Assembly: GCA_964590395.1 (NCBI GenBank)
Contig: CAZPVT010000006.1
Span: forward strand, 4,093-68,092
Origin: an uncultured bacterium
Lineage (GTDB): Bacteria > Hydrothermota > Tepidihabitantia > Tepidihabitantales > Tepidihabitantaceae
DNA length: 64,000 nucleotides
Direction: 5' to 3'
Shown here: piece after piece, positions 4,287-58,843 of the stretch
Numbering within the stretch: position 1 is the first letter of the stretch
Layout: each line of letters begins with the position of its first letter
The notes under the pieces: model-generated
Databases searched by the model: none
What the model was told of the DNA's origin: nothing
The model's input: the letters and a program-made list of their open reading frames with translations, nothing else
Position numbers and translations under genes: made by a program

Positions 4287-7200
4287 GTGAACCGTCTTTT
4301 TGTTGTCTTGATGCTGATAGCCGGCATTGCACTGGCAGGCAATATCACCCGGACATTTAACTTTTCCCCTGATTTAATTAAACTTGGCACCCGGGACGGC
4401 TATACCACAGTTGAGCTCAACATGGCAGCCTGTCCTGGTAATCTGGGTGAGCCGGACCTGCCGGTCCTGCCCTACCAGGTGGTAATTCCGGCTGATGCGG
4501 AAGTTACCGGTCTGGAGATAATCTCGTATAAGGAAGAACCAATTCCAGGCACCTATAAGGTTATTCCGGTCCAGCATCCTATCCCCTGGAAAAAGGAGTA
4601 TCAACCGATGCCATTTGTTCCGCCTGACCCCCAGATTTACGCCCAAAATCAGCTCTGGCCCCAGCTACCTGCCCGGTTTGCCCATACCGGCAGTAAATCT
4701 GGCTATCGGATTGCCAGTTTCTGGGTTTATCCGGTCCGGTATAATCCGGTAACCGGCAAACTCTATGCGCTGAGCAGTATCACTATTCGGCTTAACTACC
4801 AATCCGGACTGCATCCTGTTCCCGCTTATACCGATTTACAGATCAAACTTTTTGGTGACCAGGTAAAGATGCTTGTCATCAATCCGGAAGAGGTTGACCG
4901 ATTCGCTCCACCCAAAAGGACAAAAAGTTACGGCTCACTCCTTCTTGAGCCTGGCACCTATGAGCACATCATTTTAACCGGTCAGCAGTTTGCAGATTCA
5001 CTTATCTGGCTACGCGACTGGCGGACCAAACTGGGTTGGCGCTCCAAAATCGTGATTCTTGAATCAATCTGCGCTACCTATCCGGGCAGAGACAATGCAG
5101 AAAAGATGCGCAACTTTATTAAAGACGCTGATACCACCTGGGGCACAATCTTTGTCTTCATCGCCCGACCTGACTATCCAGCAAACTACTATCGGATCGC
5201 GCGTGCTTATGGTTATGACTTTTTCTCGGATATGTACTTCTCGGACCTTGACGGCACCTGGGACAGAAATAATAACAACATCTTCGGTGAACCTGCGGAC
5301 TCGGTTGACGGCTATGCTGATGTCCACATCGGAATGATGACCTTAAACCAGTTCTCAGAAATTGCCAATGTCCGCAACAAGATTATGCGCTACGAAACCG
5401 CACCGGACACCACTGGCAACTGGTGGCATAAAATACTTTTGCCCAACGGCGTAGACTTCTCTGACAACTACAACGACTCCATTGCCAATGCCAGTCCAAC
5501 CCCGCCATATTTTGACCTGAAGATGTATTACTCGGGTAATGGCCAGGTTATCCCAACTCCCCAGCGCTACTGCGACTCTTTGAACTCCGGGTACACTTTC
5601 ACTTCGGTTATCGCACACGGTGACCCGGACTTATATGAACTTGGTGGTTATGTTACCAGCCAGATGATGCTCAATCTGACCAACATCAACCGTCTTAACT
5701 GCCTGACCGCGGTCTGCTGTCATACCGGTGAATGGGATGCCGGCTCAACCAATGGCGACTGTATAGCCGAAAATATGTTTAACCACGCACCAAACGGCTT
5801 TATCGGTGTAATGATGAACTCCCACTATGGCTGGATCAATGTTGCCGAAAAACTGAACTATGCGGTCGCCTACGGGTTTTTCGGATTCAGAACCGCTCGC
5901 AAAATCCATCAGGCAGAAATGCTCTCCTATGGCAGAGACTACTGGGTACCGGTAATCCTTGACTCCCAGAAGTACCGGATGGAAATAATGGAACGCAACC
6001 TGTTTGGTGAACCTGCCACCCCGATCTGGCGTGCCCGACCGTTTATTCCTGTGGTAAGCAAACCAACTTCAATCAACATTGGCAACAACATCCCGGTGAC
6101 CATAACTGTCCAGACCCCGGGTTTTGCGCCCGTGGAATCCGCAATGGTTGTCCTCCAGAAAACTAACGAAACTTTTGTCCGGGGCTGGACCAACTCTTCA
6201 GGACAGGTTACGATGCTGGTATCCTGTCCGACCCCGGGCTTTCTCAAACTCTCGGTCGTAGGTGCAAACAACATCCCCTATTTTGACTCAATCGTAGTTG
6301 TATCCAGCAGCAGGTATATTTCCTATCTCAAACACTATATCAACGACCCACCACCTGGTGGTAATGGCGACAGCATCATCAATCCCGGTGAATCGTTCCG
6401 GATTCCGATGTGGCTCAAGAATTACGGCAATCTGACCGCAAATAATGTAACCGCCCGGCTCCGCACCCGCACCGCTGGTGTTACCGTAACCGATTCAGTC
6501 AAAAACTTCGGTAACATTGCCGGTGGTGATTCAGCCTTTAACAGTCAGGGTTTTGGAATGACCGTTGCTAACGGTCTGCCCAACCGTTATCCCATCTCCT
6601 GTTCGCTTATCTGCAAAGATGCCCTGGACTCCACCTGGGTCTCATTTATCATCCTGTATGTCGGTGCCCCCGCAATTGACTTTGTTAATAAAACGGTAAA
6701 AGATTCAGCCTCCTCCCAGCCAAACGGCAGGCTTGACCCGGGTGAAACCGCTGACCTTGAAGTTACCCTCTGTAACTCTGGATTGGGTAATGCTTATAAT
6801 GTTCGGGCAGTTCTGCGCTCCGGTGATAGTAGATTGGTGGTCTCTGATTCGGTAGCACTCTACGGCACAATTCCGGCTGGTGCCAGCGCCACCAACCGTA
6901 CCGATCGCTTTACCCTGTTCGCCTCATCCTCAATCCCACCGGAAACACCAATTACCTGCACGCTCGCGGTATCGGCTGATAACGGCTACTATAGCCGGTC
7001 AACCTTTACAATTATCATCGCTGAAATGCGCCCGATTGACCCGATTCCGGACAACTCCAACCCGCCACTTTACTGGGCTTACGACGAGGTGGATACGCTC
7101 TATCCACATTATCCTGAGTTTGAATGGGTGGAGATTTACGGTATTGGCACCAGATTGAATCTGAGTGATGACCAGACAATAACCATTGACCTGCCCCCAT

Positions 7201-8006
7201 CATTTGGACCATTTATCTTCTATAATCAGCGCTACACCCAGATCTCCATCTGCTCCAACGGCTGGATTGCTCCTGGGTATACCACACTGACCACCTATGA
7301 TAACACCACACTTCCCAACACCTCTATGCCACCGCTGATTGCTGCGAACTGGGATGACCTTTACCCGCCCTACGGTGACAGTGTCTGGTATTACCATGAT
7401 ACCGCCAATCACCGGTTTATTATTGAGTGGGACTCGGTGTATTACTGGAACAGCACGCAATGGGAGAAGTTTGAAATAATCATTTATGATACCACGCTTG
7501 CCAGTGCAGATGGCAACTCCAGAATCGTTATTCAGTATCTTAGCGCAAATAAGGCAGGCAGTTCTGCAACCGTGGGAATTCAGGACCACACCCGGACCAG
7601 ATACATCCAGACACTTTACAACGGCTCATATCACCGTTGCGCCTCACCCTGGATTCCTAACCATGCGATAAAATTTTCCACTGATAGCCCCACCGGAGTT
7701 ACTGAACAGTTCGGTGCCTCACTCTCGGCTAAAGGCAAAATCCTCGCAATAGCACCCACCCATTTCCATCACACCACCACCATTAACTGGCTGGTGCCAA
7801 GAGCCGGTGAAGTAGAACTGAAGATATATGACCCTCTGGGCAGAGTTATTAAAACCCTGATCAAGGGAAAAATGCAACCGGGAACCTACTCAACGGTCTG
7901 GAATGGAACTGACGAAAACCGCAGGAAAGTTGCTAACGGCATCTACTTCATTCGGCTGACAACTCCGGATAACTCAGTAAAGGTAAAAACTGTCATCACC
8001 CGGTAA
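4287..8006 (+). CDS. secreted gingipain-like cysteine peptidase (C25 family) with C-terminal T9SS sorting domain
   Basis: Signal peptide, C25-like propeptide and catalytic region (VIAHGDPDLYE His region, TAVCCHTGEWD Cys region). Ig/CARDB-like middle domains. The last ~70 aa match a T9SS type-A CTD (KIYDPLGRVIKTL...NGIYFIRL). Confidence 0.75.
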   Translation: MNRLFVVLMLIAGIALAGNITRTFNFSPDLIKLGTRDGYTTVELNMAACPGNLGEPDLPVLPYQVVIPADAEVTGLEIISYKEEPIPGTYKVIPVQHPIPWKKEYQPMPFVPPDPQIYAQNQLWPQLPARFAHTGSKSGYRIASFWVYPVRYNPVTGKLYALSSITIRLNYQSGLHPVPAYTDLQIKLFGDQVKMLVINPEEVDRFAPPKRTKSYGSLLLEPGTYEHIILTGQQFADSLIWLRDWRTKLGWRSKIVILESICATYPGRDNAEKMRNFIKDADTTWGTIFVFIARPDYPANYYRIARAYGYDFFSDMYFSDLDGTWDRNNNNIFGEPADSVDGYADVHIGMMTLNQFSEIANVRNKIMRYETAPDTTGNWWHKILLPNGVDFSDNYNDSIANASPTPPYFDLKMYYSGNGQVIPTPQRYCDSLNSGYTFTSVIAHGDPDLYELGGYVTSQMMLNLTNINRLNCLTAVCCHTGEWDAGSTNGDCIAENMFNHAPNGFIGVMMNSHYGWINVAEKLNYAVAYGFFGFRTARKIHQAEMLSYGRDYWVPVILDSQKYRMEIMERNLFGEPATPIWRARPFIPVVSKPTSINIGNNIPVTITVQTPGFAPVESAMVVLQKTNETFVRGWTNSSGQVTMLVSCPTPGFLKLSVVGANNIPYFDSIVVVSSSRYISYLKHYINDPPPGGNGDSIINPGESFRIPMWLKNYGNLTANNVTARLRTRTAGVTVTDSVKNFGNIAGGDSAFNSQGFGMTVANGLPNRYPISCSLICKDALDSTWVSFIILYVGAPAIDFVNKTVKDSASSQPNGRLDPGETADLEVTLCNSGLGNAYNVRAVLRSGDSRLVVSDSVALYGTIPAGASATNRTDRFTLFASSSIPPETPITCTLAVSADNGYYSRSTFTIIIAEMRPIDPIPDNSNPPLYWAYDEVDTLYPHYPEFEWVEIYGIGTRLNLSDDQTITIDLPPSFGPFIFYNQRYTQISICSNGWIAPGYTTLTTYDNTTLPNTSMPPLIAANWDDLYPPYGDSVWYYHDTANHRFIIEWDSVYYWNSTQWEKFEIIIYDTTLASADGNSRIVIQYLSANKAGSSATVGIQDHTRTRYIQTLYNGSYHRCASPWIPNHAIKFSTDSPTGVTEQFGASLSAKGKILAIAPTHFHHTTTINWLVPRAGEVELKIYDPLGRVIKTLIKGKMQPGTYSTVWNGTDENRRKVANGIYFIRLTTPDNSVKVKTVITR

Positions 8007-14684: not shown

Positions 14685-15035
14685 TGGAGGCGGCGGGAAT
14701 CGAACCCGCGTCCGAAGCGTTCAGTACCCAGGTTCTACATAGTTAGTCAGTCTATATTTCTCATCGCCTACTAAGCCGACTGACAGGCGGTAGCCGACCA
14801 GCCCCAGTAAAAATCCGGCTGCCATCCTGAGGCACAATAACAGCCTTGATCACCCTACTATACCCGCAACCAGCGCCGGGTGAAACTCGCTGGTCCAGGG
14901 GCTACCTTGCTTTAGGAAGCCAGTGCATAGCTGCTATTGGCAGCTGTAGTTCCTCTGTTGTTATTAACGAGGCAACAGAGGAGCCTCGCTATGCCCCTGA
15001 GTCCCTCAGTCACTTCGTCGAAACCATTCGCCCCC
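14685..15035 (-). ncRNA. ssrA: tmRNA (SsrA)
   Basis: 5' end GGGGGCGAAUGGUUUCGACG and 3' tRNA-like end GGACGCGGGUUCGAUUCCCGCCGCCUCCA on the minus strand. The acceptor stem pairs (GGGGGCG / CGCCUCC). An internal tag-like frame ends in a stop. Confidence 0.85.
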
Positions 15036-28764: not shown

Positions 28765-28840
28765 CGGGGCGTAGCGCAGTTGGTTTAGCGCACCAGCTTG
28801 GGGTGCTGGGGGTCGTCGGTTCAAATCCGATCGCCCCGAT
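28765..28840 (+). tRNA. tRNA-Pro (anticodon GGG)
   Basis: Cloverleaf folded by hand. Acceptor CGGGGCG/CGCCCCG, anticodon loop TTGGGGT, T-loop TTCAAAT. Confidence 0.85.
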
Positions 28841-41883: not shown

Positions 41884-41971
41884 AAAACTTGATTGGTTTT
41901 ATTAAGACAATAAAATTGTCTGTTAATTTGCCATCTATTTACACCCTGATGCTAAAATACATTATTATTAA

Positions 41972-42109
41972 TTATCCATCCTCTTCCTGTGTATGTTCGT
42001 TCGGTTTAGGTTCTGTTTTTTCTGGTTGACCTGAAGGATTAGTAACAGGTGGATCGGGAGGCACAAAGCCTTTCTCTTTCTTTTGCACTTTTTTATCCAT
42101 AGACTTCAT
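41972..42109 (-). CDS. small ORF (45 aa, Lys/Pro/Glu-rich), translationally coupled to the upstream membrane-protein gene
   Basis: ATG 2 nt after the stop of the 42112..42585 gene. Low-complexity MKSMDKKVQKKEKGFVPPDPPVTNPSGQPEKTEPKPNEHTQEEDG. It is below the ORF-track length cutoff and was found by eye. Confidence 0.25.
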   Translation of the reverse strand: MKSMDKKVQKKEKGFVPPDPPVTNPSGQPEKTEPKPNEHTQEEDG

Positions 42110-42111
42110 AT

Positions 42112-42585
42112 TTAACCACCTTCGGATCTAATTCTGCATAAATTCGTACCGACAAATACGGCAAGCGAAATTATTCCTAATATAAATGCAATTAGTGAAA
42201 ACAAATTGAGAAATGAGGTCCATCGTGCCAATGTATTCTTTTGCTTTAATGCGTCCCTTTCCCCTTTTTGGTCGGCATCCAGCATATCACGGTATCGCCG
42301 AAGTGATCGGATACTGAACTTGAAACTTAACATTATAGTGAACAACGAAAACAACAATAATCCCCAGGCGCTAAATAATATCCATAGATATTTAGGGGAG
42401 GGCGCTATTAACCTGATAAATGTAATTGACAATCCCAATGCACCGCTTGACAGTGTTATAATGGCTTTATCAAATGTCTTTGTCGATTCTAATTCTAAAT
42501 TAATATTAATTTTTCGTTCGTCCAAATATACATCTTTAGGTAACTCTGGCAATTGTGAGGATTTTTGTGTCTCAGGGCAATTCAT
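42112..42585 (-). CDS. hypothetical membrane protein (3 predicted TM helices)
   Basis: Three hydrophobic segments after a ~50-aa soluble N-terminus. AT-rich gene. Its start is 15 nt after the GIY-YIG gene stop. Confidence 0.45.
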   Translation of the reverse strand: MNCPETQKSSQLPELPKDVYLDERKININLELESTKTFDKAIITLSSGALGLSITFIRLIAPSPKYLWILFSAWGLLLFSLFTIMLSFKFSIRSLRRYRDMLDADQKGERDALKQKNTLARWTSFLNLFSLIAFILGIISLAVFVGTNLCRIRSEGG

Positions 42586-42599
42586 AATAAATATGCGAT

Positions 42600-43361
42600 T
42601 TATGCCAATTTAACCCTGCCTTTTCGCAAGGCATCAAGCGAAATCCAGTTTCCGTCCTTTGTCTTGAACCGCCACCATGTCCAGCCATTTATAGACCGCC
42701 CTGTTGCTGCTTTTCCGGCTGATGACGGCGAATTAAATATTTTATTTTTCAACCTCTGCCAATCTGCGCTTCTGCTATCAAATGTGATTGTTCCATCTTT
42801 GCGTATTTGAGCAATGAATGTTTTCCCCTTGTATTCCATCCGAATGTGTAATCGCTTGAATACATATTCACTTAGTTTAGTTTTGTGTTTATTCGTTATT
42901 TTTCCTCTATCTTTTGCCCCCGATTTACTTTCTTCTTCTTCATCCGATATACTCCAACTCGTCCACTCTTCAATTTTTCGGTTTACACTTTCCCGCAAGC
43001 GTCGACGTAATTCATACATCAAGTCCTGTGAATCAATAAATTTACCTGTTACTCTATTCCCGGGCGGTTCTGCAATGCGAAGTATCAATGCTTCAAGCTC
43101 CTTCAGATGCTCATCGCCTTCGGTCAGATAGATACTGAAGCGGTTCCATTTGCCAGAATGGCGGTCACGCATATGACTGCGTAATCTCGATCGCAGATTT
43201 CTTGCTAATCCAACGTAATAAAGACGGTCATTCTTGTAAAGCGCATAGACGCCGTTTTTTCTTCTGATAAAATCGCGAATAACCTCAGGGGATTCGTCCA
43301 GCACTTCCCCAGCAACCCCCTCAAGATGCTGAACAACCAAACGCGTTGGTCTATATTTCAT
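42600..43361 (-). CDS. GIY-YIG nuclease-domain protein with DUF4357-like C-terminal domain
   Basis: GVYALYKNDRLYYVGLARNLRSRLRSH GIY-YIG motif. C-terminal FNSPSSAGKAATGRSINGWTWW motif that I recall as characteristic of DUF4357. Confidence 0.6.
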   Translation of the reverse strand: MKYRPTRLVVQHLEGVAGEVLDESPEVIRDFIRRKNGVYALYKNDRLYYVGLARNLRSRLRSHMRDRHSGKWNRFSIYLTEGDEHLKELEALILRIAEPPGNRVTGKFIDSQDLMYELRRRLRESVNRKIEEWTSWSISDEEEESKSGAKDRGKITNKHKTKLSEYVFKRLHIRMEYKGKTFIAQIRKDGTITFDSRSADWQRLKNKIFNSPSSAGKAATGRSINGWTWWRFKTKDGNWISLDALRKGRVKLA

Positions 43362-43521
43362 CAGTCACCCTTTTTATCAAACTTGAATTTCCGTTAGGAG
43401 AAATTTGACTGTATAGATATATCACGCAACATAACATCATTACTATTAACATTAACTAAATTTAAAATACTTGTCAAGAACTTGTATAACTCAAACACAT
43501 CTCCGAGATTTTGCCTTTTAG

Positions 43522-44859
43522 TTATCGGCTATTTCTCGGCTTGGCGCGGGATTTCTGAGCGAAATTAATCTTTAACGGTTTCAGGAACTGGTAGTATTGA
43601 TAACCGATATCCCGGGTGATTTCCGCTCCATTTTCAATAGGTTCATCGGCAGACTCACGGGAAATTCTTTTCAACTCCCTTTTTGCCAGTCCGTAAAAGG
43701 GGTTCAGTTCCAGTGCAATCTTTAGGAATAATTTAGCCGCACCCGATTCGCCCCGAACAAGATGGCAGGTTGCCTTATTGGCATAGACCCGGAAGATTTC
43801 CGGATAGGTAATTCTATTCTCCAAGAGGAAGGCAAAAAACCGGTTGATTCTCTTCAGGGCAGTGTCAAAATCCTCATTACTCAGCGATTCAATCACCTGA
43901 TGATATTTCTTATACATCGGCGGAATCGGATTTTTGGAAATGGTCAGATTTATATCGGGCAAGAGACCCTTTTCATTGGACTCCTTGACCTTCTCCAACG
44001 GGGTTTTATCACCCAATTTCTTTTGCGGGCAGAAACGGTAAAATCGTGCCAGCCTTTCCAGTATCAAAGCCACGGCAACATCATAGTCCATTCGGTCCGG
44101 TGGTAGTAAACTGAATATCAGATTCAGCAAAGCCGGAAATTCACCCACCGATTCATTATAAATCCATTCTTTAATTGTTGCCGTGTCAACAAATTTATTA
44201 AGACCAAACCTAAAGAGGACTTCTTGCAGGGCAACCTCCGCCTCCTTTAGGGTGGAAATCTCCCTAGGGACCTCCGCCTCGCCTTCCCTGCTTAAAATGT
44301 TACTCCAGATCACCTTGGGATTCCAATTCTCTTTTGAGCCGCGGAAGACCCTTTCCACCTCCGGGCTCATTTTGATTGGCGGCAACGGTGGTGCCGTGCT
44401 TACCAGTTCATAATGCTCTCCCACCTTTGCCACCCGGCCCGGAAATACCTGTCCCGCTGTGACACAAAAGGTTAACTGGTACTCTTTGACCCAATAGACC
44501 TTGCCGGTCTGAATGTTTTCCAAGAGTAGCCCCTCGCCCAATCTGACCTCTTTTATTTTATAAAAACCATAGCAGTTATCCTGCAGTTGCTTATAAACCT
44601 CAAGCCGGGCATCGTTCAAATTATCGGGGTTGGTTAAATAAAAGTCCTCAATAGGTGTCCGGCCATTGCTCAGTTTAAAATCATATACAAACCATTCGTT
44701 GAATAACCCGGATTCCACCTCGTCGCGGATTTTGATTTCATTAATCGGCGCTGAGGGGCTTAAATCAAAAAACTCTCTTAATGCGCCCAGGATATCCGGG
44801 TGAAATTTCGGATTAGAAAAATAATAATTCAAAATCATCTTAATCGTTCCGGGTTCCAT
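43522..44859 (-). CDS. hypothetical protein (445 aa; C-terminal TPR-like helices)
   Basis: Long ORF in low-GC island context. No motif recognised. Confidence 0.45.
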   Translation of the reverse strand: MEPGTIKMILNYYFSNPKFHPDILGALREFFDLSPSAPINEIKIRDEVESGLFNEWFVYDFKLSNGRTPIEDFYLTNPDNLNDARLEVYKQLQDNCYGFYKIKEVRLGEGLLLENIQTGKVYWVKEYQLTFCVTAGQVFPGRVAKVGEHYELVSTAPPLPPIKMSPEVERVFRGSKENWNPKVIWSNILSREGEAEVPREISTLKEAEVALQEVLFRFGLNKFVDTATIKEWIYNESVGEFPALLNLIFSLLPPDRMDYDVAVALILERLARFYRFCPQKKLGDKTPLEKVKESNEKGLLPDINLTISKNPIPPMYKKYHQVIESLSNEDFDTALKRINRFFAFLLENRITYPEIFRVYANKATCHLVRGESGAAKLFLKIALELNPFYGLAKRELKRISRESADEPIENGAEITRDIGYQYYQFLKPLKINFAQKSRAKPRNSR

Positions 44860-44930
44860 AATTTATATATAAATATTAAAAACCATTTGACTAAATTCAA
44901 ATACCCGCATTCTATTCCATTCCATTTATG

Positions 44931-45620
44931 TCAATCATCGGAGTTTGAACTGCCGGCACGATTTAATATCTCGCCAATCGCCATTTTGAGAATCTTGAAG
45001 TTTTCATTCAGATAGTATTTCCTGAACTCGGCATCAAGCAGAGAACCCAATTTGACCGTATAATCACGCCGGGTCAACTGGTCAATTCCGCGCTGAAGTT
45101 TTCTAACTATCCCGACATCTTCGGGCAGGTTCACCCCATTTTTAATTATAAACTCAATGTCAAACACATCCCTTATTTCCCGGCGTACCAGAAACGCATC
45201 AATCTTTGCCCGCAACATCTCATTTAATTTCGGCACGGTCACCAGGACCTGTGTCGTGGCATAGCGACTGTAGGCAATCGCCCTTTCCAGTTCTATACGC
45301 CTGGGTTCTTTTCGGATCTCAATCTTAAGCCGGCGCAGATATTCAACCGACTTCAGTTCCAGAAGCAGAGTAAAAAACTTGCTCTGCCGGTCGGTAAGCG
45401 TGTAATAGCCGGAAAGAAAATCAGCCAGATTTAAAAAGAAGCGCCGGTAATTTAGTTCCTTATTTACCCAGAAATCCAGGTCAACCGAGAACCGGTTTAA
45501 GCCATAACACAGCCTTAGCATCGTTCCGCCCGTAAAAATCAACCGGCTCAGAAACCTGCCGCTGTTTAACCGGTCCAGCACCTCAATTTCAAACCGCTCC
45601 TGCTGAATCAAATCCCGCAT
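44931..45620 (-). CDS. AbiEii/AbiGii-family nucleotidyltransferase toxin (type IV TA)
   Basis: FTGGTMLRLCYGLNRFSVDLDF motif typical of DUF1814/AbiEii. Confidence 0.75.
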   Translation of the reverse strand: MRDLIQQERFEIEVLDRLNSGRFLSRLIFTGGTMLRLCYGLNRFSVDLDFWVNKELNYRRFFLNLADFLSGYYTLTDRQSKFFTLLLELKSVEYLRRLKIEIRKEPRRIELERAIAYSRYATTQVLVTVPKLNEMLRAKIDAFLVRREIRDVFDIEFIIKNGVNLPEDVGIVRKLQRGIDQLTRRDYTVKLGSLLDAEFRKYYLNENFKILKMAIGEILNRAGSSNSDD

Positions 45621-46204
45621 AGTTTTTCAATTACCTTTCTGGTTTTAACCGGGTAAACCCGGACAATCCGCTGCAACTCCTTTTTGTCCAACCGGCTAAG
45701 GTCAAGCGCGGCAAAATCAAGCCGGTATTTACCAAAGGAATAAAGATATAACGCATCAATCAGCGCCTTCTCCGGTGTGGCAATAAAAAAACCATCCTTT
45801 CTGAGAAAACTGAAATAAACACCTTTCTTTAACTTGTAATACACAAACTGCTTGCCCTGAATTTCAAACTGAACTGTCCTTTTCACCCCGCAACTTTCTA
45901 TATAACCCGGTTGGACCTGAGTTGTTATCCCGTAAAAACCAAGTGCGGTGGTTAAGGAAACATACGAAGGAACCTGCAGGATATTGGCAATCTGAAACAA
46001 CTCCACCTGGGAAAAACCCTGCCAATTCTGGGCTAATGTGTAAACCCCCTTTTTCAAACGGATAAAAACCCCCTTTTTACAGTTCCGGCTGACCAGCACC
46101 CTTATTGAACCCGGCTGTTTTTGCCCGATGCTTATCAGGTCATCTAAGGTAAAGAACAGTTTCCGGCTCAGCCGTTGTAATAACGCCCATTCCTTATTAA
46201 GCAT
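45608..46204 (-). CDS. AbiEi-family antitoxin / transcriptional regulator
   Basis: Located immediately upstream of, and overlapping, the AbiEii gene. Its ~200-aa size and N-terminal wHTH-like region fit AbiEi. Confidence 0.55.
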   Translation of the reverse strand: MLNKEWALLQRLSRKLFFTLDDLISIGQKQPGSIRVLVSRNCKKGVFIRLKKGVYTLAQNWQGFSQVELFQIANILQVPSYVSLTTALGFYGITTQVQPGYIESCGVKRTVQFEIQGKQFVYYKLKKGVYFSFLRKDGFFIATPEKALIDALYLYSFGKYRLDFAALDLSRLDKKELQRIVRVYPVKTRKVIEKLCGI

Positions 46205-46376
46205 AGATAGTTAACAATTCTGTTAATTATATATCCCTACAACCGCTGGTCAACTATCTGCGAAATCCTGTTTTGACTTGGCATTCTCGGTTTTAATCAG
46301 ATACCAGCCATTTGATAGTAGCTTTACCTCTCTAATCTGGCGGCGAAATTTACCTCTGCCCCAGTATTCACCAACC

Positions 46377-47961
46377 TTAATTTCTTTCACGTTTCACCTC
46401 GTAAATAATTAGATACTGATGGGTTAATTTAAGATAACCATTAAAATCGGGCAAAGTCCCTTGACTCTCTTTAACTAACACGATTATCTCTTTGAGCGCC
46501 AATTGCTGATTATCAACAAGATCAACAATCCTTTTTGCCAATTGCTCAATAAAACCATTTATCCGAACATCTTGAGTTTGAATCGCCACAAACCCGTTAT
46601 CTTTCATTGTCGACACCAACCCATTGACTATCTCCTCTATCTTCCCCAGATACTCATCAACCGAAAAACCTGATTGCCACTGAGACCATCCTGGTGATTT
46701 GATATAAAGTAAACCCATTTCGCCTTTGATCCTTCCGGGTTTAACTTCGCCCTTTCGCCTGCCAGTACTATCCAGCATCACGCTCAAACAGTCTCCTCCC
46801 GTTCCATAACGGGCAAGAACATTACTATCCAGCGACCGGTCAAACTCCTCCTCCGGGAAAACCCAGACCGTGGTGGTCTGAAAAGTTTTCATTCTTTCGC
46901 TGATAATTGGCACCTTTTTTAACACCAGCGGTTTACTAATTACCTCCCTTACCTGTGCCTGATATTCACGTCTGGCATCAACCGGCTTTTCGAAAATCGG
47001 CAGATACTCATGGGCAAGAAGAAGAAAGTTATGCTCAATACTGCTTTTATACCAGAAACCGGTGGTTTTGCAGTTGTGCTGACGCTTGATCACCAATTCG
47101 CGCAACTTAAAACCCGCGGAAAGATAAACATTGATAAGTTCAAACCCCAGAGGTAAAATATGTCTCTTCCGACGCAAATCACCGATCAATATTGCACATT
47201 GTCGGCCTGGTTTCAAAACCCGAAAACTCTCCTCCGCCACATCTCTCATTGCGGCTAAAAAATCATCAACATCAAGTAACGAGAGATCTCCTTCCTTACC
47301 ATCGGTATAATGAATAATGTTTGCATAAGGTGGATGGGCACAGATTAAATCCACTGAGTTGACTTCTAAAAAAGATAGATTCCTGGCATCCCCAACTAAA
47401 AGTTCTGGCTCATAAACTGAAGAATCCAACTCATCACCGGTTAATTTCAACTGGGGGGCTAAAACATTAAATGCGAGATTCCGCCGTGCCAGTTCAATTG
47501 CCTTTTCGTTGATATCCAGTGCAATACACCGCCGGCCAAGAAGTTTTACACTCAATCGCAGTTGTCCCTGCTCCACAGAAATAATCTAAAACCAACTCGT
47601 TGGGTTGAGAATAACGGAGTATTACATTCCTTGGTATATACGGGGACCAGTTACCCCGATACTCCCCACTATGCGTTGCCCAATTTCCTCTTTGTTTGAA
47701 ACTCCATACTGTTGTCGTTTCCAAAATAAACCCTACCGGCTGAAGTTGTTTTATTCTGTTTTCCGGCTTTAATCGGCTAACATTCAACCCATGTGTCTTG
47801 GTAATCAGTCTCTCAATGTATCTGAAGGTTACCCCGTATTTTTTACCAATCTCAACATCCGGCGTTCCCTTTGTCTTCTCGAGCAAAATCGCCTGATCCA
47901 CTGAACTTTTACTTTGCTTTCTCACTCTGCTTGACATACCTAACCTTATTAAACATATCAA
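46377..47961 (-). pseudogene. N4/N6 DNA methyltransferase disrupted by a +1 frameshift in an A4 run (two overlapping ORFs)
   Basis: The upstream ORF ends ...VLDYFCGAGTTAIECK in frame A. Frame B continues LLGRRCIALDINEKAIELARRNL ... DLICAHPPY (motif IV-like). Deleting one A at 47544-47547 (coding-strand AAAA) fuses them into a ~528-aa MTase with an N-terminal HTH. Confidence 0.65.
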
Positions 47962-48000
47962 TAACCAAAAGTCAATAAGGTTTTCCCTTACTGTGAAATA

Positions 48001-50478: not shown

Positions 50479-50570
50479 CGCGGTCAGTTCTTGGGATTAT
50501 ATTCGCCTGTCAGCAACTGTCAACCACCACGCTTGACTTTAATAATTGGCCGATTAATCTTAAAACATCC

Positions 50571-50641
50571 TGGGGGATCGTCTAACGGTAGGACGGCTGG
50601 CTCTGGACCAGCTAGTCGGGGTTCGAATCCCTGTCCCCCAG
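50571..50641 (+). tRNA. tRNA-Gln (anticodon CUG)
   Basis: U1:A72 acceptor typical of tRNA-Gln. Anticodon loop CTCTGGA. T-loop TTCGAAT. Confidence 0.85.
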
Positions 50642-50667
50642 TTTCATTACGAGATCCGCTCCGGCCT

Positions 50668-58761: not shown

Positions 58762-58843
58762 TGCCGGGGACAGGATTTGAACCTGCATGCCGTGAAGCAC
58801 ATGGCCCTCAACCATGCGTGTCTGCCAATTCCACCACCCCGGC
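58762..58843 (-). tRNA. tRNA-Leu (anticodon GAG), long variable arm
   Basis: Minus-strand GCCGGGGTGGTGGAATTGGCAGACACGCATGGTTGAGGGCCATG...GGTTCAAATCCTGTCCCCGGCA. Type II tRNA. Confidence 0.85.

Follow-up and report, generated by a model that had tools for sequence, protein, structure and literature searches.

Do three tightly packed genes at the end of a low-GC defense island make up one defense system, or do they belong to separate units? The question is raised by positions 41972 to 43361 of a 64,000-nucleotide stretch of DNA from an uncultured bacterium (contig CAZPVT010000006.1; we refer to this whole stretch as the window). A preliminary description, made from the sequence alone, had proposed a novel three-gene module consisting of a GIY-YIG nuclease, a membrane protein with three transmembrane segments, and a peptide of 45 amino acids (aa). 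All three minus-strand open reading frames (ORFs) are present where it had placed them. The gap between the second and third genes is 2 nucleotides (nt), as described, and that between the first and second is 14 nt, not 15.

42600-43361, minus strand: nuclease gene, 253 aa; GIY-YIG with a C-terminal RAMA/DUF4357 domain, PADLOC type PDC-S14
42112-42585, minus strand: membrane protein gene, 157 aa; three helices, the tail-less form of a large unannotated family
41972-42109, minus strand: peptide gene, 45 aa; Lys/Pro/Glu-rich, the separately encoded tail of the membrane protein family

Our analysis points with good confidence to an architecture of two units. The first would be a stand-alone GIY-YIG endonuclease fused to a RAMA domain that binds or reads DNA. 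The second would be a portable two-cistron cassette, composed of a three-helix membrane protein and its cognate Lys/Pro-rich peptide, that rides at the 3' end of single-polypeptide restriction or defense genes, mostly Type IIG, and in this instance behind the GIY-YIG nuclease. The locus as a whole would then be the distal end of a low-GC defense island in a chromosome of candidate division WOR-3, with two functional units transcribed together. Combined with a role for the cassette resembling that of a toxin and its antidote, this is the explanation that we favor overall, and we give it an even chance of being right.

Partners of the nuclease and of the membrane protein

The order of the three genes does recur elsewhere. 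Nuclease, membrane protein, and peptide occur together in the window and in two other sequences, L018 and L012, all three from a single lineage of candidate division WOR-3. Compared with positions 41972 to 43521 of the window, L018 encodes a membrane protein that is 97.5% identical and a nuclease that is 88.6% identical, and its contig ends before the peptide ORF is complete. Differences between the two nucleases are concentrated in residues ~125 to 175, the linker joining the GIY-YIG domain to the RAMA domain.

Seven other nuclease loci (L009, L010, L011, L098, L099, L100, and the P0027 locus) lack the membrane protein: a hidden Markov model (HMM) of the family finds no member in six of them, and the gene table of the seventh shows none. 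The membrane protein is thus not a constant neighbor of nuclease homologs, a point on which the idea of one novel module had been made to depend. Seen from the other side, the GIY-YIG/RAMA nuclease makes up only 1 of the 35 non-redundant upstream partners of the cassette, and the locus in question is almost identical to that of the window. What is conserved is the membrane protein together with its peptide; the nuclease partner varies, and the three genes are not a fixed system.

These distributions bear directly on the possibility of an obligate three-component system, in which the membrane protein and peptide sense infection and control the nuclease, or the nuclease signals to a membrane effector. 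Such a system would account for the tight packing of the genes on one strand and for the repetition of their order in L018 and in the syntenic but divergent L012. However, all of its occurrences are confined to the one WOR-3 lineage, where L012 and the window share a chromosomal hotspot, and the seven nuclease loci above do without any family member. The partners of the cassette are mostly unrelated enzymes (Type IIG, ISP, TIR, HNH, and DUF559), and PDC-S14 is catalogued as a single-gene candidate. We therefore regard an obligate system as very unlikely.

We sampled about 100 loci in all, among them 82 from metagenomes and viral contigs and others reached through protein matches. In the loci reached through protein matches, the cassette lies 2 to 19 nt past Type IIG- or Type ISP-like enzymes, near Shedu, Abi_2, and McrBC, and one cassette lies 14 nt past a TIR protein. 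Type IIG enzymes of about 1,000 aa form the largest family of neighbors in the 82 loci; they occur at 16 loci, always upstream on the same strand. Type IIG enzymes account for 10 to 11 of the 35 non-redundant upstream neighbors, and Type ISP, DUF559, HNH, HerA, S_4TM, and RadC for one each. Upstream sequence of at least 3.2 kb is available for 30 non-redundant loci. In 12 of these, an ORF of at least 750 aa lies on the same strand no more than 1.5 kb upstream, and in 9 of the 12 it is within 40 nt. The neighborhoods of the remaining 18 contain mainly restriction, helicase, HTH, HipA, HEPN, and CBASS-type domains.

The nearest relatives of the window cassette (46 to 48% identity; L019 to L024 and L036) follow Type IIG enzymes, and the WOR-3 arrangement of nuclease and cassette therefore looks like a partner swap. 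Gaps between the cassette and the upstream gene range from -32 to +37 nt and are typically 5 nt after Type IIG genes; by this spacing, the cassette appears to be translationally coupled to the genes that precede it. Co-transcription and coupling with restriction genes, and the short gap after Type IIG genes in particular, would also suit a guard module in the manner of PrrC, in which the cassette monitors the upstream enzyme and damages the membrane once phage anti-restriction has inactivated that enzyme. The anticodon nuclease PrrC in the EcoprrI Type I locus is a precedent for this arrangement. However, a helical membrane protein of 140 aa and a disordered peptide offer no obvious surface for partners this diverse. 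Some cassettes, moreover, stand alone behind a divergent upstream gene with an intergenic region of their own, which fits autonomy of the cassette. A guard role is quite unlikely in our estimation.

L013:770-4618 encodes, in this order, a 152-aa TIR protein with its own C-terminal membrane helix, a cassette whose peptide ends in FVPPPPPPPKPKK, and an 898-aa PHP-like/SMC-type ATPase, and it may be a distinct multi-gene defense locus.

The membrane protein family and its proline-rich peptide

The membrane protein has the three hydrophobic segments ascribed to it (residues 41-61, 64-95, and 118-153), and AlphaFold2, proposed earlier as a check, predicts three long helices (residues 17-60, 64-107, and 118-154) with a mean predicted local distance difference test (pLDDT) score of 86. 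In this model, the hydrophobic halves of the helices would form a three-helix membrane bundle, and the polar halves would project by about 20 residues on one side. Family alignments show conserved positions in each helix: SSGALGLS in helix 1, W in helix 2, and N...G...F...N in helix 3.

A word-based search recovered only 14 relatives of this protein. A profile search of 1.84 billion cluster representatives recovered 6,806 at an E value of at most 1e-3 and 4,070 at an E value of at most 1e-10, all of about 120 to 300 aa. Counted as clusters at 50% identity, the family has at least 4,000 members. It is thus very large, and it is unannotated. Where sources give its members a name, it is “hypothetical protein,” and no family of Pfam, NCBIfam, or PADLOC is consistently matched by 42 diverse members. 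For the window protein and five relatives, PHROGs has no family either. PADLOC models give no match to the window protein, and only 2 of the 42 relatives weakly match “Effector 2TM” (E value 2.8e-4). We judged this and the other scattered weak matches obtained with the membrane protein, its 42 relatives, and the peptide (DUF2721, DUF3169, and 8xMP) to be compositional; DUF3169 is the family of the Staphylococcus aureus AyrA protein, whose context is unrelated to the cassette.

Searches with tblastn gave no match for three members among annotated plasmids or for one member among 50,697 phage records, and 2.9 million viral contigs yielded only three weak matches. We also considered and set aside a holin or phage lysis cassette, as there is no PHROG family, no match to a phage record, and no adjacent lysin.

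The peptide is as rich in Lys, Pro, and Glu as first described (8 K, 8 P, and 6 E among 45 residues), and comparison with the family indicates that it is the detached C-terminal tail of the membrane protein. Two features within the window are relevant here.

42047-42070, minus strand: conserved short linear motif G-F-V-P-P-D-P-P, peptide residues 14-21, which fits the family consensus
42116-42122, minus strand: Shine-Dalgarno (SD)-like AAGGTGG, 6 nt ahead of the start codon (ATG) of the peptide, within the 3' end of the membrane protein gene

In many family members, the chain ends in a Lys/Pro-rich tail where a motif occurs once to several times; in the subfamily nearest to the window protein, this motif reads [DEQ]-[KER]-G-[YF]-V-P-P-[KR]-x-P (62 copies). 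The window peptide, ...KKEKGFVPPDPPVTNP..., agrees with this consensus in the segment EKGFVPPDPPV. In the split form, the membrane protein stops right after helix 3 and a separate ORF of 34 to 94 aa follows with the same sequence; 41 split loci gave 36 distinct peptides. The offset of the peptide ORF in split loci is mostly -11 to +19 nt, with three reaching up to about 106 nt. The fused form, with the tail on the membrane protein itself, was found at about 12 loci. Most loci missed by our first pattern have a downstream Pro/Lys-rich small ORF of at least 27 aa with a variant motif. In total, the membrane protein is paired with a tail or peptide in nearly all of about 70 loci, and the window locus has the features that define the family. 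The peptide genes of 27 to 94 aa are real small ORFs that standard annotation likely under-calls.

The start of the peptide is marked in both forms. An SD-like sequence of the GGAG/GAGG type precedes the peptide ATG by a few to about 10 nt in most of 21 split loci; in about 13 of 15 fused genes, a purine-rich SD-like stretch occupies the equivalent position. In the fused genes this stretch falls within codons for differing amino acids, which argues for a constraint at the RNA level and for independent translation of the peptide in both forms. The tail of fused members is thus probably also made alone from an internal start. We rejected a programmed frameshift joining membrane protein and peptide, since the peptide has its own SD sequence and ATG in split and fused loci alike.

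Motif and membrane protein vary together. The G[FY]VP motif occurs only with bodies of the window type, and GRxxP only with the other two types. By the logic of gene fusion and by this co-variation of motif and subfamily, each product of the cassette probably acts on the other. A secreted bacteriocin with its immunity protein was also rejected: the peptide lacks a leader or signal sequence, and it is frequently part of the membrane protein itself. In an AlphaFold2 model of a natural fused homolog, the tail is coil (pLDDT 62 to 74). The motif may bear some resemblance to insect proline-rich antimicrobial peptides and to ligands of the DnaK or SH3 type.

The cassette shows further variation across the sample. 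A conserved Met stands behind an SD-like GGAG at the junction of membrane protein and tail in L025, L029, L032 to L034, L056 to L058, L084, and L085. Cassettes of a Bacteroidota type (L007:5001-5828 and L003:5001-5816) encode one or two additional free peptides besides the tail, and tail and peptides alike carry the variant motif (G/A)RTIP(K/I)P. The copy number of the peptide gene varies, and L040 encodes an 89-aa peptide with about five motif copies.

Related peptides average 22% P and 20% K and mostly end in KK, like DNA-binding tails, and this composition raises the possibility of a tether. A polycationic Lys/Pro tail would bind DNA or a host factor and concentrate DNA or nuclease at the membrane, raising restriction without killing. 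Most partners of the cassette do target DNA, and fused forms would anchor the tail at the membrane. Several observations speak against this. Non-specific DNA binding needs no invariant G-[FY]-V-P-P motif, the split forms have no covalent anchor, the TIR partner does not target DNA, and the window peptide is net acidic in its C-terminal half. We consider a tether unlikely.

The conservation of the small ORF also weighs on the simplest possibility, namely that the membrane protein is an independent superinfection-exclusion or envelope protein, or has no defense function, and is in the island by chance next to a functionless ORF. Small membrane proteins are common in mobile DNA, and the annotated phage and plasmid collections gave no context-bearing match that would speak to function. 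However, dozens of loci conserve the small ORF, in its sequence and position as well as in its ribosome-binding site, and the enrichment of restriction genes among its neighbors is far beyond chance. The near absence of the family from viral contigs and from PHROGs also counts against this possibility, which we consider highly improbable.

A candidate toxin and antidote

If the two genes act on each other, what would the cassette do? Our candidate mechanism, which we put forward tentatively and which may well prove wrong, is that of a toxin and its antidote. The membrane protein would be a latent membrane-perturbing toxin silenced by continuously made peptide. Once the supply of peptide stopped, through phage takeover of translation or through loss of the operon, the membrane would be damaged. 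The outcome would be abortive infection or post-segregational killing, lent to restriction genes that are unable to cause addiction themselves. The partners are single-polypeptide systems (Type IIG, ISP, GIY-YIG-RAMA, HNH, DUF559, and TIR), and, as restriction-modification addiction is understood, such systems lack the imbalance between restriction enzyme and methylase that kills when the genes are lost. For such partners, a toxin and antidote in the cassette would supply the addiction function. The bicistronic layout, the split and fused forms, the separate ribosome-binding site of the peptide, and the defense-island setting lend this role indirect support.

A number of observations weigh against this proposal. 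An antidote fused onto the toxin's own chain is unusual for toxin-antitoxin pairs, and the strict proline motif, repeated one to five times, suggests a specific structured binding partner. The cassette's strong preference for sites immediately behind Type IIG genes could just as well reflect a direct functional link. A fold search with the membrane protein model returned only generic helical bundles, and PADLOC comparison revealed no similarity to known membrane effectors or toxins. The AlphaFold2 model places the tail across the membrane from the soluble helix extensions; the bias in charge, with a net positive tail and a neutral to acidic N terminus and second loop, mildly favors a cytoplasmic tail. 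The window peptide is itself atypical, with a single motif copy and an acidic C terminus in place of the usual KK ending. Lastly, in L012 (positions 6001-7500) the nuclease and membrane protein genes are each broken over three reading frames, with the peptide ORF next in the same order. This copy reflects either a dispensable or decaying module at that site or indel errors in the assembly.

Several known systems invite comparison with the cassette. PrrC, in the EcoprrI Type I locus, and RloC are abortive-infection effectors embedded in restriction loci, and they would share with the cassette a second-line, potentially suicidal function co-transcribed with a restriction gene. They are soluble anticodon nucleases with ATPase domains and Type I partners, and they have no sequence relation to the cassette, which consists of a small helical membrane protein and a proline-rich peptide and has Type IIG or GIY-YIG partners. 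The 2TM and 4TM effectors of CBASS, PycTM of Pycsar, SLATT proteins, the transmembrane effectors of Thoeris type II, and RexB are, like the membrane protein, short helical membrane proteins in defense operons, and one relative of the cassette follows a TIR protein. However, no HMM relates them to the cassette, which has no cyclase or other signal-producing partner, and its obligatory proline-rich peptide or tail has no counterpart among them. The window protein shows no HMM similarity to any catalogued membrane effector family in PADLOC-DB v2 (CBASS 2TM/4TM, PycTM, SLATT, KwaA, RexB, and others).

Toxin-antitoxin operons, of the Hok/Sok type or type II, resemble the cassette in being portable, autonomous two-gene units, and the second cistron of the cassette has a strong ribosome-binding site. 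The cassette also shares with them a location in defense islands and beside restriction genes. It differs in its candidate antidote, a disordered peptide rich in Lys and Pro that has a strict motif and is often fused to the candidate toxin, and in having no DNA-binding autoregulator. The holin and antiholin of lambda S are made from two starts in one ORF, and the internal SD sequence and ATG of fused cassette members would similarly free the peptide. Unlike in lambda, the internal start would yield a soluble tail only, and the cassette has neither an endolysin nor a phage context.

Another possibility, which we find doubtful but worth stating, is that the cassette represents a very widespread new accessory class, specifically coupled to single-polypeptide restriction enzymes and to Type IIG most of all, with a mechanism unlike those of known defense, toxin-antitoxin, or lysis systems. 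One example would be a membrane sensor or gate under the control of a multivalent polyproline ligand produced from its own internal start. Type IIG enzymes and stand-alone nucleases are treated as self-sufficient single-gene defenses, and if this reading were true, many “single-gene” Type IIG systems would really be three-gene systems.

The nuclease is of a known kind and the cassette is the new part, covered by none of the libraries searched (Pfam, NCBIfam, PADLOC, and PHROGs). The preliminary description had found no named system to match the locus, and this assessment holds for the membrane protein and the peptide; it fails for the nuclease, which matches PDC-S14. Our search of the literature on the peptide motif and on membrane proteins linked to Type IIG enzymes found no description of the cassette, an outcome that does not in itself prove absence. 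What the survey reveals is a large unannotated gene pair that is repeatedly joined, at the level of the operon, to restriction enzymes supposed to act as single genes. If addiction or abortive infection is its function, the cassette would explain the upkeep of restriction genes that are not addictive and would add a new membrane effector with a peptide regulator. If it instead tethers DNA or senses DNA entry, the view of how these restriction enzymes work in cells would change. With about 200 codons, a sharp peptide motif, and natural split and fused variants, the cassette is open to direct testing.

The nuclease and the surrounding island

The nuclease was described as a GIY-YIG enzyme with a C terminus of the DUF4357 type, and domain searches are in agreement. 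Pfam matches to GIY-YIG (PF01541; residues 36-71, 23.4 bits against a cut-off of 22.6) and RAMA (PF18755; 36.2 bits against 35.2, E value 6.3e-9) are above their cut-offs. DUF4357 (PF14267; E value 9.9e-8) overlaps the RAMA match and, at 32.3 bits, is below its cut-off of 38.4. The C-terminal sequence quoted in the preliminary description, FNSPSSAGKAATGRSINGWTWW, is present in the protein.

43056-43256, minus strand: GIY-YIG catalytic core, residues ~36-102, with GVY, YYVG, R59, H63, E88/E90, and N102
42621-42839, minus strand: RAMA/DUF4357 domain, residues 175-247, with SPSxA...NGWxxW

The nuclease has more than 372 homologs. An alignment of 33 shows G37, Y39, Y49, G51, R59, H63, E88, and E90 to be invariant and N102 nearly so, with the SPSxA...NGWxxW signature kept as well. 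The protein thus has the spacing of the GIY and YIG elements followed by Arg, His, Glu, and Asn that identifies a GIY-YIG nuclease, and both the model score above the curated cut-off and the signature that identify RAMA. Matches to solved structures, both weak, are to the GIY-YIG domain of AtGRXS16 (2lwf) and to the C-terminal DNA-binding domain of CcrM (6pbd).

About four to five PDC-S14 models in PADLOC match the nuclease, with E values from 2.2e-12 to 3e-6. The matches span the N-terminal region (residues 35-98) and the C-terminal region, and model and architecture together assign the protein to this candidate type. PDC systems are “guilt-by-embedding” candidates lacking experimental validation (PMC10855318). 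The paper that defined RAMA predicts it to read N6-methyladenine and describes its fusion to many restriction nucleases (PMC4738411), and another lists GIY-YIG-RAMA fusions among candidate Type IV enzymes yet to be studied (PMC11037411). Reading of N6-methyladenine by RAMA is only predicted, and the biochemical evidence is mixed (PMC4738411, PMC11037411). Two parts of the original picture change as a result: the nuclease is not novel, as it matches PDC-S14 and its fusion type is already in the literature (PMC11037411), and the C-terminal domain presented as having no known function is RAMA, a predicted reader of DNA or N6-methyladenine (PMC4738411). By analogy with Type IV enzymes, cleavage by the nuclease may depend on DNA modification.

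Homologs of the nuclease occur in restriction contexts. One follows a Type I specificity subunit, two follow Type IIG enzymes, and another has an 891-aa protein on one side and an HNH protein on the other; the GIY-YIG-RAMA family, too, is a frequent 3' satellite of restriction-modification genes. Individual homologs lie 13 to 23 nt past a Type IIG gene or overlap the end of a Type I specificity gene (L099:641-4326, L100:526-4747, and the P0027 locus). These contexts and the domain composition argue for a restriction-type nuclease that belongs to the already known candidate kind PDC-S14 and not to the UvrC-like repair paralogs, the alternative raised at the outset. UvrC and Cho share its catalytic fold and motif spacing. 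However, the window nuclease contains only GIY-YIG and RAMA domains and none of the C-terminal domains of UvrC, its neighbors are AbiE, a methyltransferase, and other island genes, and its homologs lie inside restriction operons. We therefore rejected a UvrC/Cho repair paralog. Like other PDC-S14 proteins, it combines a GIY-YIG core that retains all catalytic residues with a C-terminal RAMA/DUF4357 domain and sits among restriction genes; it departs from that single-gene candidate in being followed, here and in the two related WOR-3 sequences, by the membrane protein and peptide.

The three genes are very AT-rich, as first noted. Their GC content is 0.403, against a mean of 0.476 for the window (standard deviation, 0.027), and ranks 8th lowest among 626 windows of 1,400 nt; the minimum of the entire stretch, at 42100, falls inside them. 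They occupy the end of a low-GC island of about 6 kb (positions 41884-48000, GC 0.421). As described, the genes are operon-like and lie in a defense island beside AbiEi/AbiEii and a DNA methyltransferase. The other contents of the island are all on the same strand.

43449-43477, minus strand: sigma-70-like promoter candidate, TTGACA-17-TAATGT, read in the sequence; a weak feature
43522-44859, minus strand: 445-aa protein with no Pfam, PADLOC, or PHROG family; 19 homologs, two of them with PF25948
44931-45620, minus strand: AbiEii, PADLOC E value 5.7e-87; forms an abortive-infection toxin-antitoxin pair with AbiEi
45608-46204, minus strand: AbiEi, PADLOC E value 1.4e-29; overlaps AbiEii by 13 nt, so that the pair is complete
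46377-47961, minus strand: N6/N4 DNA methyltransferase in two ORFs, matched contiguously across both by the PADLOC MTase_II model PDLC03376

The promoter candidate had been named in the preliminary description as lying ahead of the three genes. Its letters are present (TTGACA at 43477-43472, a 17-nt spacer, and TAATGT at 43454-43449) in a 160-nt AT-rich gap (GC 0.30) upstream of the nuclease gene. However, the -10 element agrees with the consensus at only 3 of 6 positions, a consensus promoter scan does not list the site, and promoter-like sites show no enrichment relative to shuffled sequence (16 found, 13.8 expected). The candidate is plausible, and for these reasons it is not evidence.

The 445-aa gene was rejected as a fourth component, since two of its homologs' contexts, in L101 (ribosomal protein genes) and L102 (a Y1 transposase/RhuM/Pif1 cluster), are unrelated to the nuclease or the cassette. 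The two methyltransferase ORFs, of 155 aa and 399 aa, overlap by 83 nt and are split by one extra A near 47535. Dropping one A from the run TAAAAC rejoins the frame, giving ...DYFCGAGTTAIECKLLGRRCIALDINEKAIELA..., and the split reflects gene decay to a pseudogene, phase variation, or a sequencing error in the homopolymer. This frameshifted gene is the sole methyltransferase near a nuclease predicted to read methylated adenine.

The nuclease has its closest relatives in candidate division WOR-3 genomes, and comparison with two of these reveals the setting of the island. The window and L012 share GNAT and FG-GAP/TPR genes on one flank. On the other flank, genes for a 131-aa protein, a PEMT-like protein, and a 405-aa protein are common to the window, L012, and L009, and the window also shares MgsA there with L012. 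All three sequences carry the nuclease between these flanks; it is followed in L009 by a Tsp45I restriction-modification pair and in L012 by the membrane protein and peptide. Of the three sequences, the window alone carries AbiE, the methyltransferase, and the 445-aa gene between the flanks. With shared flanks and differing content, the region is therefore a variable defense hotspot. No integrase was found among the ORFs checked beside the island, and an Rfam scan and a repeat search around the cassette found no regulatory RNA, no mobile-element ends, and no bounding repeats.

A few further features were recorded. The window contains a transfer-messenger RNA (14685-15035, minus strand; tag peptide AMHWLPKAR), which does not adjoin the island, and tRNA-Pro(GGG) (28765-28839, plus strand), tRNA-Gln(CTG) (50570-50642, plus strand), and tRNA-Leu(GAG) (58762-58843, minus strand), none of which does so either. 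A terminator-like hairpin with a T-run, identified by consensus match only, lies at 42056-42074 on the plus strand, about 170 nt past the convergent FG-GAP/TPR gene, and falls within the peptide ORF of the opposite strand. In L012, a HicA-like small ORF is located at 7586-7756, past the peptide ORF.

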